Shown here: piece after piece, positions 22,328-37,239 of the stretch
Layout of the letters: each line of letters begins with the position of its first letter
Numbering within the stretch: the first letter of the stretch is position 1
Assembly: GCA_029265715.1 (NCBI GenBank)
Contig: JAJUGZ010000003.1
Span: forward strand, 10,322-74,321
DNA: 64,000 bases
Source: Bacteroidota bacterium
GTDB lineage: Bacteria; Bacteroidota; Bacteroidia; Bacteroidales; Prolixibacteraceae
Reading direction: 5' to 3'
Notes under the pieces: model-generated
What the model saw: only the letters and a program-made list of their open reading frames with translations
Database searches by the model: none
What the model was told of the DNA's origin: nothing
Program-made: the position numbers and the translations under genes

Positions 22328-22580
22328 CTTTTTTTAATGGGTTGCTTGGGTAATTCCGGTGTTTATTTTTGTTTCTTCAGGCTGTTACGCGAAAATTGAT
22401 TAACTTTTTAACCGGTTTGGACCGTATTGATCTGCAAGGCGATTGGGTTACTGTTTTAACCTTGCTGAATAGGGTCGGCATGATTGCCGTTTTTGCTTTC
22501 GAAGTGTTGGCGAAATAAATGACGGGTAAAACGGTACAGGCTCACTTTCGGGGTATTCAAACTTCCTAAAAACTGATGCG

Positions 22581-23324
22581 ATGAGAACGTTGTTCTTTCT
22601 ACTATTTCTGATTTTAACTACTACTGGCCTTTCCGCTCAGGACGTGAAAGAAATCGTGCGGAAAGCTGATGAGAAAATGCGCGGAAATTCAAGCGTCGGG
22701 ACTTTTACAATGACAATTGTCCGTCCGACCTGGAGCCGGACCATCTCGATGAAAAGCTGGACAATAGGCATGGACTATTCCATGATTTATGTGACAGCTC
22801 CCGCCAAGGAGAAAGGACAGGTATTCCTGAAACGGCACAATGAAATGTGGAACTGGGTGCCAGGCATTGAACGGTTGGTGAAAATTCCGCCTTCGATGAT
22901 GATGCAGTCGTGGATGGGCTCGGATTTTACCAACGACGACCTGGTGAAAGAATCATCGATTGTGAAAGATTACGACCATAAGCTGGCGGGCGAGGAGCGA
23001 ATTGATAATTATCCGGCCTACAAAATTGAACTTATCCCGCATGAAGATGCTGCCGTGGTTTGGGGCAAGGTTTACATGTGGGTAAGCAAAGCAGATTATC
23101 TGTGGCTGAAGGCTGAGTTTTACGATGAGGATGGCATGCTGGTCAATACCGAAATCCTGAGTGATATTAAGAAGATGGACGACCGGGTGATCCCTTGCCG
23201 GATGGAAATGATCCCGGCTGGCAAGAAAGGGCAGAAGACGGTAATGGTCTTCGAGGACATTGATTTTGATGTGCCCCTGAAAGAAGACTTTTTCTCGATC
23301 CAGAATATGAAAAAAGTAAAATAG
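22581..23324 (+). CDS. LolA-like 'outer membrane lipoprotein-sorting' periplasmic protein
   Basis: Signal peptide; IVRPTWSRT, APAKEKGQVFLK, SWMGSDFTNDDL motifs. Confidence 0.85.
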   Translation: MRTLFFLLFLILTTTGLSAQDVKEIVRKADEKMRGNSSVGTFTMTIVRPTWSRTISMKSWTIGMDYSMIYVTAPAKEKGQVFLKRHNEMWNWVPGIERLVKIPPSMMMQSWMGSDFTNDDLVKESSIVKDYDHKLAGEERIDNYPAYKIELIPHEDAAVVWGKVYMWVSKADYLWLKAEFYDEDGMLVNTEILSDIKKMDDRVIPCRMEMIPAGKKGQKTVMVFEDIDFDVPLKEDFFSIQNMKKVK

Positions 23325-23328
23325 AATT

Positions 23329-23355
23329 ACTGAAGGATTGAAGGATTGAAGGATT
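23329..23355 (+). repeat. left arm: (TGAAGGAT)x3 8-nt tandem repeat
   Basis: ACTGAAGG ATTGAAGG ATTGAAGG ATT starting 4 nt after the upstream stop. Confidence 0.9.
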
Positions 23356-23377
23356 TGCGATCAAAATAGATCTCTTT

Positions 23378-23775
23378 ATGGGAACGGTGGATGTTGACTA
23401 TAAAATCAAATTTAGGGAAGAATTTGAGCTCCGGCTTAAGTCATTTGTAATAATATTGATAGAATTAACGCGTGGAACTTCTTACAGTCTGGAAAGCAAA
23501 GTCGTTTTAAATCAGTTGCTTCAGTCTGGGAGTTCTGTTTGTGCAAATTACAGGGCTGCCTGCAGGGCTCGGTCAAAAGCCGAATTCTTCAGTAAGTTAA
23601 GTATTGTTGTAGAAGAAGCCGATGAAACAGAAATGTGGCCGGAGCTTTTAATTAGTTAATAAACGATTCTGAAGATACCAAAGCTCTTTATGCTGAAAGT
23701 ATCGAAATCCTGAAAATTATGGCAAAGGCCAGAAAAATGCAGGTATTTAATAAATTCAATCCGTCAATCCTTTAG
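23378..23775 (+). pseudogene. four-helix-bundle protein (TIGR02436 / 23S-IVP family), frameshifted
   Basis: QLLQSGSSVCANYRAACRARSKAEFFSKLSIVVEEADET motif; TAA TAA at 23657-23662, while the last helix LINDSEDTKALYAESIEILKIMAKARK continues in another frame to TAG 23775. Confidence 0.85.
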
Positions 23776-23785
23776 TCCTTCAATT
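23753..23785 (+). repeat. right arm: inverted 8-nt tandem repeat
   Basis: AATTCAAT CCGTCAAT CCTTTAGT CCTTCAAT T, complementary to the left arm, ending at ATG 23786. Confidence 0.85.
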
Positions 23786-25000
23786 ATGAACCTCAAACTT
23801 GCATGGCGAAATTTGTGGCGTAACAAGCGCCGGACCCTGATAACGGTCGCTTCGATTTTTTTCGGGGTGCTGCTCAGTACGTTTATGACGTCGATGCAGG
23901 AAGGGACCTATTCGCGCATGATCGACAATGTAGTTGGTTTTTATTCCGGGTATGTTCAGGTTCATGCTCCGGATTATTGGGCCAACAAGACCATCGAATA
24001 CACGTTGCCGGTAAACGATTCGTTGCTGAAAGCAATCGGAAATACTCCGGATGTGAAAACGGTAGTGCCGAGGCTTGAGTCGTATGCGTTGCTTTCATTT
24101 CAGGATAATACCAAAGGGGCTGCTTTGCTGGGAATTGATCCGGAGAAAGAAAACCAAATGACCAACCTGGCACACTGGATTGATCGGGGTTCGTACCTGC
24201 AAAATGGGGATGACGGGGCTTTGCTGGCTTTCAACCTGGCCAGAAACCTGGGCGTTGAAGTTGGCGATACACTGGTGGTTATTAGTCAGGGCTTCCATGG
24301 AGCAAGTGCCGCCGCACTTTTGCCGGTTCGCGGAATCCTGAAATTTCCGGCCCCAACCATGAACAACCTGGGCGCTTACATTGACCTCAATGCCGCGCAG
24401 GACTTTTTCTCTGTTCCCGATCGTTGTACCTCCATTGTGTTGATGGTTAACGGATATTCGAGGGTGGATCAGGTAAAAAGCCGGCTGGTTGCAAAATTTG
24501 GGAACCGGTACGAAATAATGACCTGGGATGAGATGGACCCACTGACCAAAAACATGATTGATGCCGATCGCTCCGGGGCTTATATCACCAAGGGAATTCT
24601 GTATGCCCTGGTTGGGTTTGGTATTTTTGGAACGGTAATCATGATGATGGCCGAACGGCGCAAGGAGATGGGTGTCTTAATCGCCATTGGGATGCAAAAG
24701 CACAAGTTGGGCACAACTCTTTTTTATGAAACGTTGCTGATTGGTCTGGTCGGGGTAATAGCTGGTTTTGCAGTTAGCTGTCCGTTAATCCTGTATCTGG
24801 TTTATCACCCGATCCCGTTTACGGGGGAGACGGCAAAAGCTTATGAACAGTTCGGTTTTGAGCCGGTTATGTACTTTTCGGCCAAATGGTTCATTTTTGC
24901 CCGGCAGGTGTTGATCGTATTTATCCTTGTTTTGTTGGTTTATCTGTATCCGCTGGCAAAAACTGCCAGGCTGCGTTTGACCAAGGCGCTTCGTGCGTAG
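23786..25000 (+). CDS. FtsX/LolE-like ABC permease
   Basis: LAWRNLWRNKRRT, large periplasmic domain, ERRKEMGVLIAIGM. Confidence 0.9.
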   Translation: MNLKLAWRNLWRNKRRTLITVASIFFGVLLSTFMTSMQEGTYSRMIDNVVGFYSGYVQVHAPDYWANKTIEYTLPVNDSLLKAIGNTPDVKTVVPRLESYALLSFQDNTKGAALLGIDPEKENQMTNLAHWIDRGSYLQNGDDGALLAFNLARNLGVEVGDTLVVISQGFHGASAAALLPVRGILKFPAPTMNNLGAYIDLNAAQDFFSVPDRCTSIVLMVNGYSRVDQVKSRLVAKFGNRYEIMTWDEMDPLTKNMIDADRSGAYITKGILYALVGFGIFGTVIMMMAERRKEMGVLIAIGMQKHKLGTTLFYETLLIGLVGVIAGFAVSCPLILYLVYHPIPFTGETAKAYEQFGFEPVMYFSAKWFIFARQVLIVFILVLLVYLYPLAKTARLRLTKALRA

Positions 25001-25003
25001 AAG

Positions 25004-25196
25004 CTGAAGGATTGAATAGTAGTGAGTAGTGAGTAGCGAGACCAGAAATTGATTATTGATCACTCAAAATTCAACATTCAGAATTCGAGACTCGAGTCTC
25101 TTTTCTTGATACTTGATACTTGAAGCTTGAAGCTTGATACTTGATGCCGGATGGTTGCCCTGTGATGTTTGGGTTAACTAAACTCAGGTACTCAGG
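25004..25196 (+). repeat. stack of several different 7/8-nt tandem repeats, no ORF
   Basis: CTGAAGGATTGAA; (TAGYGAG)x3; (ATTGATY)x2; AAATTCA ACATTCA GAATTCG; GAGACTCGAGTCTC palindrome; (CTTGAWR)x6; ACTCAGG x2. Confidence 0.9.
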
Positions 25197-25231
25197 GACT
25201 ATATTATTTAGGTACTTTTTAAAAATGAAAT

Positions 25232-26452
25232 ATGATACTTGCAGTAGCCTGGAGAAACATCTGGAGAAATAAAACCCGCAGCTTGGTTATTCTGGTTGCG
25301 ATCTGCCTTGGATTGGCCTCCGGGATTTTCTATATGGCCTTTTATTTCGGGATGGTCGACCAGCGCATCAACACGGCCATAAAAACCGAAGCATCCCACA
25401 TTCAGATACATCACAAAGAGTACCTGAGCAACCCGGATAAAAAGTTTATGATTGAAAATGCTGGTCCAGTTGGCCAGGAGATCAAACGGGTGGAAGGAGT
25501 GATCGCAACCAGCAACCGCATTATCCTGAACACCATGATACAATCTCCGGAAACGGGGGCGGGAGTGAAAATCTCCGGAATTGACCCTGAAGATGAAAAG
25601 CAGGTGACCAACCTGTATTCAAAACTGATTGAAGGGACGTATTTCGAAGACGGGAAACGAAATCCGATTATTATCGGGAAAAAACTGGCCGAGAAACTGA
25701 GGGTTAAACTGCGGTCGAAGGTGGTTATTACCCTTCAGGATATGCAGGGAAACATGACCGGCGCTGCATTTAAAGTGGAAGGTATTTATGAAACCTCCAA
25801 CACGGCATTCGACGAAACCTGTGTTTTTGTGCGCAGGTCTGATCTGGCCCCGATCATGTTGATGGACGATCATGCTTGTCAGGAGATTGCTGTTTTGCTC
25901 GAAAAGAACGACCAACTCCAGGTGGCCGACGAAACCATCAAAAGCAAACTTCCGGATTTGGATGTAAAAACATGGCGCGAAATCATGCCTGAAGTCAGTC
26001 TGATCGAAAGCAGCTTCACCCTTACCATGTTCATCTTTATCGGCATTATCCTGCTGGCTTTGCTTTTCGGGATTGTCAACACCATGCTGATGGCTGTGCT
26101 CGAACGGGCCAAGGAACTGGGCATGCTGATGGCTATCGGGATGAGCAAGGTGAAACTATTCCTGATGATTTTGTCGGAAACGGTTATGTTGTCGTTATTT
26201 GGTGGCTTGTGCGGTATCGTGTTGGGCTGGATTCTGACCCTTTGGTTCGGTGTGCAGGGAATCGACCTGGGGGCCTGGTCGGCTGCTTATAAGTCGCTGG
26301 GGTACGATACGCTGGTTTATACACGGCTATCCATGGGTATTTCGTTTCAAATTGCCGGTATGGTGATTGCTACAGGAATTATTGCCGCGATATATCCGGC
26401 TATGAAAGCGTTGCAACTGAACCCGGCCGATGCCCTCCGGATTGATATGTAG
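25232..26452 (+). CDS. FtsX/LolE-like ABC permease, second subunit
   Basis: VAWRNIWRNKTRS, ERAKELGMLMAIGM, LNPADALR. Confidence 0.9.
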   Translation: MILAVAWRNIWRNKTRSLVILVAICLGLASGIFYMAFYFGMVDQRINTAIKTEASHIQIHHKEYLSNPDKKFMIENAGPVGQEIKRVEGVIATSNRIILNTMIQSPETGAGVKISGIDPEDEKQVTNLYSKLIEGTYFEDGKRNPIIIGKKLAEKLRVKLRSKVVITLQDMQGNMTGAAFKVEGIYETSNTAFDETCVFVRRSDLAPIMLMDDHACQEIAVLLEKNDQLQVADETIKSKLPDLDVKTWREIMPEVSLIESSFTLTMFIFIGIILLALLFGIVNTMLMAVLERAKELGMLMAIGMSKVKLFLMILSETVMLSLFGGLCGIVLGWILTLWFGVQGIDLGAWSAAYKSLGYDTLVYTRLSMGISFQIAGMVIATGIIAAIYPAMKALQLNPADALRIDM

Positions 26453-26512: not shown

Positions 26513-27208
26513 ATGAATGTCATCGAAGTTAAGAAGCTGAATAAAATATACAACGAGTCGGAAGTGAAAGTTCAGGCATTGAGCGAAGTTGACCTGGCGA
26601 TTGAACAGGGCGAATTCACCGCGATTGTGGGACCGTCCGGTTCCGGGAAAACAACCTTCCTGAACATGCTTGGCGGGTTGGACGAACCAACTTCCGGCGA
26701 GATTCACATTGGAGGAACCGATATCAGGGGGCTGTCGTCGTCGCAACTGATCGATTTTCGGCTCCGGAATATTGGCTTTGTTTTTCAGGCCTATAACCTG
26801 ATCCCGGTTCTGACGGCCAAAGAAAACGTCGAATTCATCATGGAACTGCAGGGCGTTTCGAAGAAAGACCGGGAGGCACGAACGATGGAACTGCTGGAAG
26901 CTGTTGGTTTGAAAGGCCGTGAAAACAGCCGTCCGGCCAAACTAAGCGGAGGGCAGCAACAACGGGTGGCCGTTGCCCGTGCGTTGGCCTCGAAACCCAA
27001 ATTCGTGCTGGCCGATGAGCCAACGGCCAACCTCGACTCGAAATCGACTGAAAACCTGCTCGAACTCATGGAAGAGCTGAACCGAAAAGAAAATGTTACA
27101 TTTATCTTTTCGACGCACGATCAGCGTGTTGTGAACAAGGCGCGCCGCGTGATTACGCTCGAAGACGGCAAAATAATTCGCGATATCCGTAAAAACCATA
27201 CGATATGA
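26513..27208 (+). CDS. LolD/MacB-type ABC ATP-binding protein
   Basis: GPSGSGKT, LSGGQQQRVAVAR, LADEPTANLD, STHD. Confidence 0.95.
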   Translation: MNVIEVKKLNKIYNESEVKVQALSEVDLAIEQGEFTAIVGPSGSGKTTFLNMLGGLDEPTSGEIHIGGTDIRGLSSSQLIDFRLRNIGFVFQAYNLIPVLTAKENVEFIMELQGVSKKDREARTMELLEAVGLKGRENSRPAKLSGGQQQRVAVARALASKPKFVLADEPTANLDSKSTENLLELMEELNRKENVTFIFSTHDQRVVNKARRVITLEDGKIIRDIRKNHTI

Positions 27209-35720: not shown

Positions 35721-36827
35721 CTATTCCAGTCTGGTTTTGAACTTTTTGACGGCAATGGTGGTGAACAGCGTGGCCATTCCGGCGATAATCAGGGTTTCTT
35801 TCCAGACATACAGGATGCCGGTGCCTTTCAGCATGATGTTTTTAATGATGATGATAAACCATCGGGGGGGCATGATCGAACTGAGAACCTGCAAGGCTTT
35901 GGGCATATTTTCGATCGGGAAAATAAAGCCTGAAAGCAGCATGGTTGGCAACATCAGGGCAATCATCGAAATAAACATGGCTGTCATTTGCGTTTTGGCC
36001 GCTGTCGAGATTAAAATTCCCAGGCAAAGCGCCATCAGGATAAACAGGATGGTTTCTGCCATCAGGAAAATCACGCTGCCTTTGATGGGGACCAGAAATA
36101 CCAGGTGCCCGATCAGTACAATGACAATGGCATTAATGATCGACAAGAATAGGTAAGGGGTCACTTTCCCCAAGATGATCTGTGTTGGGCGGAGCGGCGA
36201 TACCAGCAGGATTTCCATGGTTCCCAGCTCCTTTTCGCGGGTGATCGAGATGGAAGTCATCATGGCTGAGATCAGCATCAGGATCATGGCCATAATGCCG
36301 GGCACGAACATGTACACGCTTTTCAGGCTTTCGTTGTAAAACATGCGCACTTCGGTATCGATCTGCATGGGCATAGTCACCGGCTTCATGTCTTTGGTAA
36401 TGTAGTCGTTGATGATCCCGGCGGTATATCCCGATAGCAGTTTCCCGATGTTCGGATCGGAAGCGTCGGCAATTATCTGGACATCGGCCCTGCCTTCACG
36501 GACCAGTTTTTCGCCGAAGTTTTGTCCGAAGACGATGACTTCTTTTACATGCCCTTTGCGGAAAATACCTTCTACTTCGGCTGTGCTTTCCAGGTTTTGG
36601 TCGAGCCGGAAATAACCTGATGACAGGATTTTTTGCGTGATTTCGCGTGTTGCCTCGTCCTTGCTTTGGTCGAGGATGGCAATGCGGGCATCTTTAATTT
36701 CGTTTGTGATGACGGTACCGAACAGCAACAGCTGGATGATCGGGATCCCGAACAGGATCACCATGGTACGCACATCGCGAAAGATGTGGTAAAATTCTTT
36801 GATGACAAATCCGTAGAAGCGTTTCAT
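35721..36827 (-). CDS. ABC-2 permease (YbhS-like)
   Basis: KEFYHIFRD, REKELGTMEILLVSP, SGFIFPIENMP. Confidence 0.92.
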   Translation of the reverse strand: MKRFYGFVIKEFYHIFRDVRTMVILFGIPIIQLLLFGTVITNEIKDARIAILDQSKDEATREITQKILSSGYFRLDQNLESTAEVEGIFRKGHVKEVIVFGQNFGEKLVREGRADVQIIADASDPNIGKLLSGYTAGIINDYITKDMKPVTMPMQIDTEVRMFYNESLKSVYMFVPGIMAMILMLISAMMTSISITREKELGTMEILLVSPLRPTQIILGKVTPYLFLSIINAIVIVLIGHLVFLVPIKGSVIFLMAETILFILMALCLGILISTAAKTQMTAMFISMIALMLPTMLLSGFIFPIENMPKALQVLSSIMPPRWFIIIIKNIMLKGTGILYVWKETLIIAGMATLFTTIAVKKFKTRLE

Positions 36828-36838
36828 AGTTTAATCAT

Positions 36839-36859
36839 GAGTAGCGAGTAACGAGTAAA
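36839..36859 (-). repeat. right arm of four-helix-bundle cassette 2
   Basis: Minus strand TTTACTC GTTACTC GCTACTC. Confidence 0.85.
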
Positions 36860-36882
36860 ATGGGCTCGCGTTCGGTTGTTCG

Positions 36883-37239
36883 CTATTTGTTGTTTATTGA
36901 TCGTTGAAGACCGCTTATCATTTTTTGTATTTCATCCAATTTCTGAGTCAATGATTCGAAATCGGGTTGGCTTACGTAGTTTAGTTCGTGTGCGATGATG
37001 AGTTGAGTCTCGAGTTCAAACGAAGAACCCTTGGCAATATTTAAAAAGTGGATGAAGTCTTCCGGGCTCATTCTTCCAGCACCTTCGGCAATATTTGAAG
37101 GAATAGAAGACGCAGCTCTTCGGATTTGTGATGTCAGTCCGTAGCCTTCTTCCGTTGGAAAGGTCTGAGTGATTTTGTATATCAAGATCACTAATTCAAT
37201 GGCCCTTTGCCAAACTTTCAATTCTTTGAAATTATTCAT
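36883..37239 (-). CDS. four-helix-bundle protein (TIGR02436 / 23S-IVP family), intact
   Basis: MNNFKELKVWQRA, FPTEEGYGLTSQIRRAASSIPSNIAEG, FLNIAKGSSFELETQL; real start ATG 37239. Confidence 0.95.
   Translation of the reverse strand: MNNFKELKVWQRAIELVILIYKITQTFPTEEGYGLTSQIRRAASSIPSNIAEGAGRMSPEDFIHFLNIAKGSSFELETQLIIAHELNYVSQPDFESLTQKLDEIQKMISGLQRSINNK

Follow-up and report, generated by a model that had tools for sequence, protein, structure and literature searches.

The window analysed here is a stretch of 64,000 nucleotides (nt) from a Prolixibacteraceae genome (contig JAJUGZ010000003.1), and it includes an operon for an ATP-binding cassette (ABC) transporter. Between a LolA-like gene and the first permease gene of this operon lies a small cassette, in which a gene of the TIGR02436 / PF05635 four-helix-bundle family is enclosed by two arms of short tandem repeats in inverted orientation. 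Judged from its sequence, the enclosed gene is a pseudogene that has lost its function while the arms still pair. The cassette measures 456 nt from arm to arm and occupies the entire space from the stop codon of the LolA-like gene to the ATG of the permease gene. The features of the region are as follows.

22581..23324, + strand: upstream host gene, LolA_like (outer-membrane lipoprotein-sorting type; PF17131, E 3e-57), with its TAG stop at 23322-23324
23329..23355, + strand: 5' arm, ACTGAAGGATTGAAGGATTGAAGGATT, built of the tandem octamer TGAAGGAT with the core GATTGA
23378..23659, + strand: first 93 codons of the four-helix-bundle pseudogene (PF05635 / TIGR02436), ending in TAA TAA
23653..23659, + strand: site of the -1 frameshift, which is also the left edge of a patch less than 80% alike in a sister strain
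23656..23775, + strand: rest of the gene in the -1 frame (LINDSEDTKALYAESIEILKIMAKARKM...), placed by alignment with intact orthologues; the natural stop is gone and the frame runs into the 3' arm
23758..23784, + strand: 3' arm, AATCCGTCAATCCTTTAGTCCTTCAAT, made of degenerate AATCCTTC units complementary to the 5' arm
23786..25000, + strand: downstream host gene, an FtsX/MacB-type ABC permease (PF02687, PF12704)
25232-26452 and 26513-27208, downstream in the same operon: a second permease, then an ABC ATPase (PF02687, PF12704, PF00005)

The arm stem and the decay of the enclosed gene

When the two arms were paired again as RNA of the + strand, the 27 positions gave 23 Watson-Crick pairs, 2 G-U pairs and 2 mismatches, and the same positions on the opposite strand gave 23 Watson-Crick pairs, 1 G-U pair and 3 mismatches. 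A first-pass annotation, made from the letters alone, had proposed this stem together with an 8-nt repeat unit and a tight placement, 4 nt after the LolA-like TAG and 1 nt before the permease ATG (23786). The pairing and the coordinates agree with that description, and Tandem Repeats Finder returned 3.1 perfect copies of TGAAGGAT at 23331-23355. The minimum-free-energy fold of 23315-23800 is closed by the arm stem (-132.2 kcal/mol, z = -3.9). The stem score of 21.5 compares with 9.0 +/- 1.5, and a maximum of 15.5, in 1000 dinucleotide shuffles of both flanks, and it was matched by 0 of 2000 random placements in the window. The arm stem is real and far beyond chance.

One explanation for such a stem is that it is a neutral leftover of simple-sequence slippage in the spacer, self-complementary by chance and of no use to host or element. 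The arms are of low complexity and prone to slippage, their unit number varies between strains, and the intergenic spacers at this junction gather many kinds of hairpin. Nevertheless, the pairing lies far beyond that of shuffled flanks, the arms of one cassette are more complementary to each other than to swapped arms, and the design recurs in four clades and many phyla and persists past the saturation of synonymous sites (see below). We regard this explanation as very improbable, and it is already disfavoured by these observations. As for other elements in the region, no Rfam family matched 22500-25400 at E up to 1, the cassette showed no terminator-like site, and the domain matches of the neighbouring genes revealed no transposase or integrase in the cassette or adjoining it.

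The family of the enclosed gene was assigned with hidden Markov models (HMMs), scored on the frameshift-corrected read-through of the open reading frame (ORF). The read-through protein matches TIGR02436 with 61.2 bits (cut-off 24; E 9e-17) and PF05635, the 23S rRNA-intervening sequence protein, with 39 bits (cut-off 33.8; E 1e-9), and an intact orthologue matches PDB 2RLD, a five-chain entry (E 2e-16). Departing from the family norm of an intact four-helix ORF of ~115-125 aa, the copy in the window stops after 93 codons and has its fourth helix (LINDSEDTKALYAESIEILKIMAKARKM) in the -1 frame from 23656. A programmed frameshift was considered and rejected: the shift point would be AGT-T just behind a TAG of the target frame, and because there is no slippery site and this TAG stands just before the shift point, a pseudogene is preferred. 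The frameshift is known from the assembly and could formally be a sequencing error; a search of sequencing runs found none with this genome, the best holders containing 42% of its words, in contigs only.

Decay is also indicated by the sequence around the frameshift and by the relatives of the gene. Codon 23639-23641 encodes Pro, where 29 of 29 aligned orthologues have Leu after a conserved Trp, the same substitution that the first-pass annotation had pointed out. The amino-acid distance from the cassette protein of the window to its ten nearest relatives is 0.30-0.38, and that of the host protein 0.18-0.23, whereas among those ten relatives themselves the distances are 0.11 for the cassette protein and 0.13 for the host protein.

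A relative ~97% identical to the window was assembled as contigs in two independent anaerobic-digester runs (X1/X2). In this sister strain, an additional TG after 23604 changes SIVVEE into SIVL-stop, so that the gene is broken there independently, and the 5' arm has one octamer fewer (8 nt left out at 23331). Across 23658-23783, 129 letters are less than 80% alike in the two strains, though both sides are 97-99% alike. This divergent patch spans the last helix of the gene and the entire 3' arm, which hints that part of a cassette was replaced by recombination with another copy. Because the left edge of the patch is the position of the frameshift, the latter may be the scar of such a replacement rather than a simple indel. 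As the sister strain carries a different lesion and the window protein is abnormally diverged, decay of the gene, as first proposed from the frameshift and the Leu-to-Pro change, is supported independently of the frameshift. Closer relatives were also sought with the LolA-like protein, in one genome scan and one metagenome scan, and none appeared above ~82% identity. In a river metatranscriptome, short contigs cover the host gene and a relative of the cassette gene, a weak sign of transcription.

A family HMM built here detected only two PF05635-type genes in the window, at 23378-23659 and, on the - strand, at 36886-37392; the second lies in another cassette (cassette 2). The two belong to different subfamilies, as had been noticed at first reading. 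Neither the intact orthologue nor cassette 2 matched any PADLOC defence model at E up to 0.01, and a role in anti-phage defence was dropped for this reason.

The same junction in other species

The LolA-like protein served to collect its orthologues, which came from 80 metagenome contigs and from the genomes of 80 species of Prolixibacteraceae and neighbouring groups (best identity 81%) and which after deduplication gave 149 distinct LolA-to-permease junctions; loci are cited by their L numbers. Intact and empty sites, which the first-pass annotation had recommended looking for in other strains, were both found among them. Eighteen junctions are tight (<=30 nt), 38 have a four-helix-bundle gene, 7 have other long inserts and 86 are gene-less spacers of 31-300 nt. 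In five of the 18 tight junctions (L044, L067, L070, L284, L299) stop and start overlap as ATGA, and in L051, L038 and L249 the spacer between them is 2-9 nt. The unoccupied state of the junction is a 4-nt ATGA overlap or a spacer of a few bases.

About 30 Prolixibacteraceae junctions have an orthologous cassette with a gene of the subfamily found in the window (...ANYRAACRARSKAEFFSKLSIVVEEADETEMWLDLL...) and arms of the GGAYTGAA type (GAAGGATT, GAAGGACT, GATGGACT...). The left arm usually begins right at the stop codon, and the right arm ends 0-6 nt before the ATG. For 29 orthologous cassettes, the identity of the cassette protein tracks that of the host LolA-like protein (pairwise Spearman 0.56, p 6e-35). 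In 15 pairs with unsaturated synonymous sites, the median ratio of nonsynonymous to synonymous substitution (dN/dS) is 0.05 for the cassette gene vs 0.04 for the host gene, and dS goes from 0.4 to ~1 in the closest pairs up to saturation. The gene is intact in most related species, and the purifying selection on it there is strong, as strong as that on the host gene. The identity correlation and the high dS together indicate that the cassette has stood at this junction since before these genera split and was inherited vertically; the arm type persists at the junction although synonymous sites are saturated. An independent origin of the same architecture with another repeat family, which had been suggested to account for the two cassettes of the window, is not supported, as the arms were inherited with the gene in the ~30 orthologous cassettes.

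Other occupants are present at this junction in other lineages, sometimes within one genus. A second subfamily (B type) with AATGCNTA-type arms occurs in L024, L030, L048 and L060, and a classical member of the family with AATTGTTA arms in L073. In L079, from one Bacteroidetes metagenome-assembled genome (MAG), the 492-nt spacer holds a PDDEXK_3 / TIGR04256 GxxExxY gene (E 2e-41); the inverted repeats around it are plain and not tandem, and ATGA stands on either side. Here a vehicle of the same sort carries another type of small cargo.

Among the gene-less spacers of >=45 nt, 19/87 have an inverted repeat that spans the spacer at z >=4. Ten of these 19 are arm-type hairpins without a gene, with the AATGCATGAATG... 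unit in L021, L049, L282, L291 and L292 and with other unit types in L077, L052, L015, L257 and L253. Weaker gene-less hairpins of the AATGC type are found in L285, L066 and L274 (z 2.4-3.6). Remnants of the cassette type of the window are seen in L002 and in L046, where a half-deleted gene remains between the arms. The rest of the hairpins are members of unrelated families. The gene-less arm hairpins and L046 support the earlier proposal that the stem can outlast the gene.

Two further hairpin families recur at the junction. In L023, L035, L043, L050 and L271, stems of TGTCATTTCGAAGG...CGTCGAAATGACA enclose a GAGAAATCT hairpin, and in L005, L006, L009, L010 and L241 there are blocks of CCCCTCCCCAACCCTCCCC / GGGGAGGG. 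Both look like repeated intergenic palindromes unrelated to the cassettes.

Across ~150 species, the junction shows every state, from ATGA overlap through intact and decaying cassettes and solo stems to replacement cargo, and its interest lies mainly in the comparative series that it opens.

Recurrence of the design and the possible role of the arms

Across Bacteroidota, relatives of the window protein (47-57% identity) occur at unrelated sites, and inverted tandem arrays with a period of 7-11 and a GATTGA core stand on both sides of nearly all of them; the unit in the window contains that core. In the clade of the B. thetaiotaomicron protein of PDB 2RLD, the gene is flanked by inverted heptamers (AATTGAC, CATTGAC or CATTGAA) that often touch the start or the stop of the ORF, with the 5' arm ending 0-2 nt before the ATG. 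Its hosts are Bacteroides, Prevotella and Alistipes, and also Firmicutes, Campylobacterales and Treponema.

Close relatives of the Bacteroides gene (53-69% identity) were observed in Firmicutes (Faecousia, Oscillospiraceae, Phascolarctobacterium), Campylobacterales, Aquificota and Treponema. At the loci of these cross-phylum relatives (L170, L172, L181-L183, L195, L198, L205, L206, L223, L224, L228), nearly all have the same heptamer arms, which points to transfer across phyla or, for some MAGs, to binning contamination. A MAG of a Methanophagales archaeon (L350) has a relative of cassette 2, not of the Bacteroides gene.

Cassette 2 occupies 36841-37396 (- strand) of the window, between an ABC ATPase gene (37397-38143) and an ABC-2 permease gene (35721-36827). 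Its gene is intact (PF05635/TIGR02436, E 1e-44), and its stem of 14-15 bp is formed by GTAGCGA/GTAGTGA heptamers in arms at 37396-37383 and 36854-36841, directly after the ATPase stop. The nearest relatives of cassette 2, in other Prolixibacteraceae, have similar GAGTAGY-type heptamer arms. Distant ones (Verrucomicrobiota, Gemmatimonadota, Myxococcota, candidate phyla, an archaeon) have different units resembling the host in GC content, some of them GC-rich in high-GC hosts, still arranged as inverted tandem arrays. An arm motif common to the whole family (GATTGA/ATTGAC), which seemed to be present in three clades, was ruled out by these different units of the cassette 2 clade. By this comparison, what is conserved is the design, not a universal motif, and the design recurs in all four clades sampled. 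As the arms are kept with the gene at the junction and within each clade, the two cassettes of the window are diverged members of one old element family.

The junction between the two permease genes of the same operon (25001-25231, + strand, 231 nt) resembles a graveyard of arms. In it, CTGAAGGATTGAA, a unit of the cassette at 23329-23784, abuts TAGTAGTGAGTAGTGAGTAGCGAG, a unit of cassette 2, followed by six CTTGATA/CTTGAAG units, ACTCAGG repeats and a terminator-like hairpin (25087-25100); it has no gene and no overall stem (fold z = -1.1).

The position of the cassettes relative to their neighbours was surveyed in 163 cassettes of three clades. An upstream neighbour within 150 nt is co-directional in 130 cases and opposite in 7, and the 5' arm starts at a median of 4.5 nt before the end of the upstream stop codon (interquartile range -10 to +6.5). 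Because the arm overlaps the end of the upstream gene, it often supplies the stop codon of that gene. The downstream neighbour is co-directional in 98 cases vs 34 opposite, and the 3' arm then ends at a median of 9.5 nt before the ATG. In the arms of 111 cassettes (loci L081-L240 and the window), the unit period is mostly 7 (60) or 8 (17), which are not multiples of three. In the same set, stops in all three frames within 30 nt were counted in 67% of the 5' arms vs 19% of composition-matched shuffles, and in 65% of the 3' arms read on the other strand, none of these figures being corrected for kinship.

Transcription across such cassettes was followed in a Bacteroides relative. RNA-seq of a cultured Bacteroides gave single contigs that cover the upstream gene, an AATTGAC-armed cassette and araA without a break, and such cassettes are thus co-transcribed with their hosts. 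In 2/4 runs the contigs break at the arms. We rejected RNA processing as the cause of these breaks, since further copies of the arm sequence in the genome make the assembly branch there. Several other contigs match in the arms alone, which suggests multiple cassettes with the same arms. RNA-seq contigs span the whole unit of L163 (2438-2904; B. faecis MAJ27, and also L161 and L162), where the PDB 2RLD gene lies between a gene for a 227-aa protein and araA. In L163, the 5' array of 4.4 AATTGAC heptamers starts 3 nt after the upstream stop and reaches to 2 nt short of the ATG of the 2RLD gene, the mirror array stops 9 nt short of that of araA, and CAATAAA is present on both outer sides. The L163 cassette before araA would be a tractable experimental model.

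Own arms pair better than arms swapped within their class (fixed 150-nt flanks), with z = 11 overall, 6.3 in the GATTGA class and 2.6 at the LolA junction. Complementarity itself is thus maintained by selection, past synonymous saturation. Duplex energies of the 120-nt flanks are a median of 12-17 kcal/mol better than those of shuffles, but they carry little weight, as the shuffles also pair extensively.

We favour, with moderate confidence, the interpretation that the cassette of the window is the dead copy of an old, vertically inherited cassette of the type of the 23S rRNA intervening sequences (IVSs), whose stem loops out the insert in RNA and is probably a substrate of RNase III. The cassette would most likely be transcribed by read-through from the upstream gene, seemingly without a promoter or terminator of its own, although the promoter scan used the sigma-70 consensus, which is not suited to Bacteroidota. 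In the transcript, the arms would zip into a helix of ~27 bp, looping out the insert of ~400 nt and bringing the upstream stop and the downstream start within ~5 nt of each other. By analogy with the IVSs of the same gene family, this helix would probably be cut by RNase III. Either way, the insert would be nearly harmless to the operon, as an IVS is to the ribosome, and this would explain the tolerance of cassettes flush against stop and start codons. The tandem units may act as a register-tolerant zipper, as gain or loss of units by slippage would keep a continuous helix. We infer by this analogy that the stem acts in RNA, through looping-out, RNase III cutting or restored coupling, and such a role is plausible because the 23S rRNA IVS relatives work through a stem of this kind (PMC4990558).

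Several observations weigh against this interpretation. Translation of the permease might just as well be inhibited by a stem that stops 1 nt short of its ATG. Many arms are imperfect, with ~79% Watson-Crick positions in the A/GATTGA set, and in that set the unit cores are more conserved than the spacers between them, which hints at sequence-specific recognition beyond pairing. A G-U pair is tolerated in the transcript, and A-C is its equivalent on the other strand, so that an excess of G-U is expected under selection at the RNA level; G-U vs A-C at the non-Watson-Crick arm positions is 178:141 (p = 0.04), a weak excess made up of 123:97 and 55:44 in two data sets, neither significant alone, and too weak to decide between the RNA and the DNA level. 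The RNA evidence consists of assembled contigs of other organisms, which carry no information on ends. Finally, empty junctions and junctions with unrelated hairpins show that the operon does not need the arm stem. The idea that the stem protects expression of the operon is therefore not shown, in view of the clean ATGA junctions and the weak G-U signature.

In a second explanation, the arms would be the ends of a mobile element acting at the DNA level, that is, inverted arrays of protein-binding repeats used by a recombinase acting in trans or by the four-helix-bundle protein, comparable with the multi-site ends of Tn7 and Mu or the subterminal repeats of Ac/Ds; the RNA stem would be a by-product. 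Within a clade, very distant hosts and unrelated sites have the same conserved cores, while the spacers differ, and at least four cargo or arm types at one junction (A, B AATGCNTA, L073 and the PDDEXK_3 gene of L079) would mean that insertion or replacement happened more than once. Remnants of two arm families next to each other in the second junction of the operon and the weakness of the G-U over A-C excess would also agree with it, and an old hypothesis assigns the ORF of IVSs a role in mobility (quoted in PMC4990558).

Evidence of transposition was sought in the 19-nt flanks outside both arms of 117 cassettes, and no target-site duplication of >=5 bp was found. The longest direct word common to the own flanks is 3.95 nt vs 4.05 nt for swapped flanks, which still allows duplications of <=4 bp, and ATGA stands on both sides of the cassette in L048, L060, L073 and L079. 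Classical cut-and-paste transposition, once considered as the leading interpretation, was dropped as there was no target-duplication signal. The lack of such duplications, of a transposase or integrase in or beside the cassette, and of near-identical copies (in a scan of the 64-kb window, not of whole genomes) speaks against ends acting in DNA, as does the old, vertically inherited state of the cassettes at the junction. Over the family as a whole, moreover, the units lack a conserved sequence and follow the GC content of the host, which fits drift under structural constraint better than a fixed binding site. We consider this explanation unlikely on balance.

A third explanation, to which we give slightly less credit, is that the tandem units are putative binding sites for the pentameric-ring protein of the cassette itself, TRAP-like, with one unit per subunit; binding of the 5' arm as RNA or single-stranded DNA would control opening of the stem, translation of the protein or assembly into a ribonucleoprotein. 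Strong purifying selection acts on the protein, so it has some function. Avd, its homologue in diversity-generating retroelements, binds both nucleic acid and a reverse transcriptase. The families of arm units track the protein clades, arms usually have 3-6 units, and in the 2RLD clade the 5' arm stops just short of the ATG. In addition, 2RLD has five chains, and Xcc0516 is a homopentamer (PMC4990558, PMC3936711). However, common descent by itself would make arm and protein covary, solo stems and the dead copy retain their arms without a protein encoded in cis, and the two arms differ in sequence as RNA, which leaves their inverted symmetry unexplained. Both this explanation and that of ends acting in DNA may coexist with a stem acting in RNA.

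On a wider and rather speculative view, which we rate as low as that of mobile DNA ends, PF05635 genes would be the cargo of widespread selfish cassettes that hug stop codons, the rRNA IVSs being only the special case that was seen first. Such a cassette would land directly behind an expressed gene or in its last codons, with arms that supply stops in three frames. The zipper would again bring stop and start together, and ribosomes would re-initiate across the base of the helix in an analogue of ribosome shunting, and/or a panhandle mRNA, complete in itself, would be freed by RNase III. Recognition of the clade-specific units by the pentameric ring protein would serve control or mobilisation, and the PDDEXK_3/GxxExxY genes would travel in the same vehicle as another cargo.

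Comparison with known systems

In the library searched, we found no literature that treats PF05635 cassettes outside rRNA with arms in inverted tandem arrays. Four-helix-bundle genes of PF05635 that lie between cas genes or in other operons have been interpreted as functionally associated with their neighbours (PMC3936711). If the cassettes are passengers that can follow any expressed gene, the company of other genes is no safe guide to the function of four-helix-bundle genes, and those between cas genes may simply be passengers. In annotation, pseudogenes and arm hairpins without a gene are to be expected in the spacers of operons.

The Avd proteins of diversity-generating retroelements have a homologous four-helix-bundle fold and belong to a homologous family, and the resemblance of PF05635 to Avd has been reported (PMC10053308). 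Cassette 2 scored weakly against Avd models, below the cut-offs, and no reverse transcriptase, template or variable repeat of such a retroelement was found near the cassette, whose neighbours are LolA_like, the FtsX/MacB permeases and the ABC ATPase. Unlike the cassette genes, Avd genes have not been described as surrounded by inverted tandem arrays.

Integron cassettes, too, are small ORFs that lack a promoter and rely on read-through, and their imperfect inverted repeats fold in single-stranded form. They differ in having one 3' attC and forming an array next to an integrase, whereas here two arms bracket the gene and single insertions are scattered behind ordinary genes with no integrase.

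The Correia/NEMIS elements of Neisseria, which are cut by RNase III, and the enterobacterial ERIC elements are co-transcribed miniature inverted-repeat elements. They are intergenic within transcription units, and their terminal inverted repeats fold in the mRNA; they have fixed consensus sequences, many near-identical copies and target duplications. The gene-less solo stems at the junction resemble copies of these elements, while the cassette is unlike them in having a cargo gene, clade-specific tandem arms and no duplication of >=5 bp.

The closest known system is the 23S rRNA IVS with an S23p ORF of Coxiella burnetii and Leptospira, and the gene family is common to both. In Coxiella the IVS is 428-444 nt long, the inverted repeats at its ends pair into a 28-bp stem, its 5' end consists of tandem GACAGAT heptamers whose number varies between strains, and its S23p (PF05635) ORF is under reductive evolution; RNase III cuts the stem at its middle in vitro, and the authors considered the RNA part more important than the protein (PMC4990558). 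Although IVSs have been known for decades, their origin and mobility and the role of the conserved ORF are still open (PMC4990558).

The cassette of the window is similar in size (456 nt arm to arm vs ~430 nt in Coxiella) and alike in its terminal inverted repeat with a stem of 27-28 bp, in a 5' end of tandem 7-8-nt units of strain-variable number, and in an ORF prone to decay while the RNA structure stays; like the IVS, it is most likely transcribed only within host RNA. Measured as an IVS-type element, it has a closing stem of >=20 bp and tandem units whose copy number varies between strains. Strict membership among IVSs fails on location, because the cassette lies between two protein-coding genes of an operon: the host is a polycistronic ABC transporter mRNA instead of an rRNA, and the site is a stop/start junction, ancestrally an ATGA overlap, instead of the tip of helix 9, 25 or 45. 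Excision by RNase III has been shown for the rRNA IVSs, whereas here we infer it, and the effect on the host, which is fragmentation of the rRNA in the IVS, would here be on translational coupling or the fate of the mRNA. Furthermore, the cassette ORF is in most relatives clearly under purifying selection, unlike the 23S IVS ORF. The element in the window is real; it belongs to a known element type, of which it typifies a way of life that has apparently gone undescribed, and the comparison shows the IVS design living in mRNAs, flush between or behind ordinary genes.

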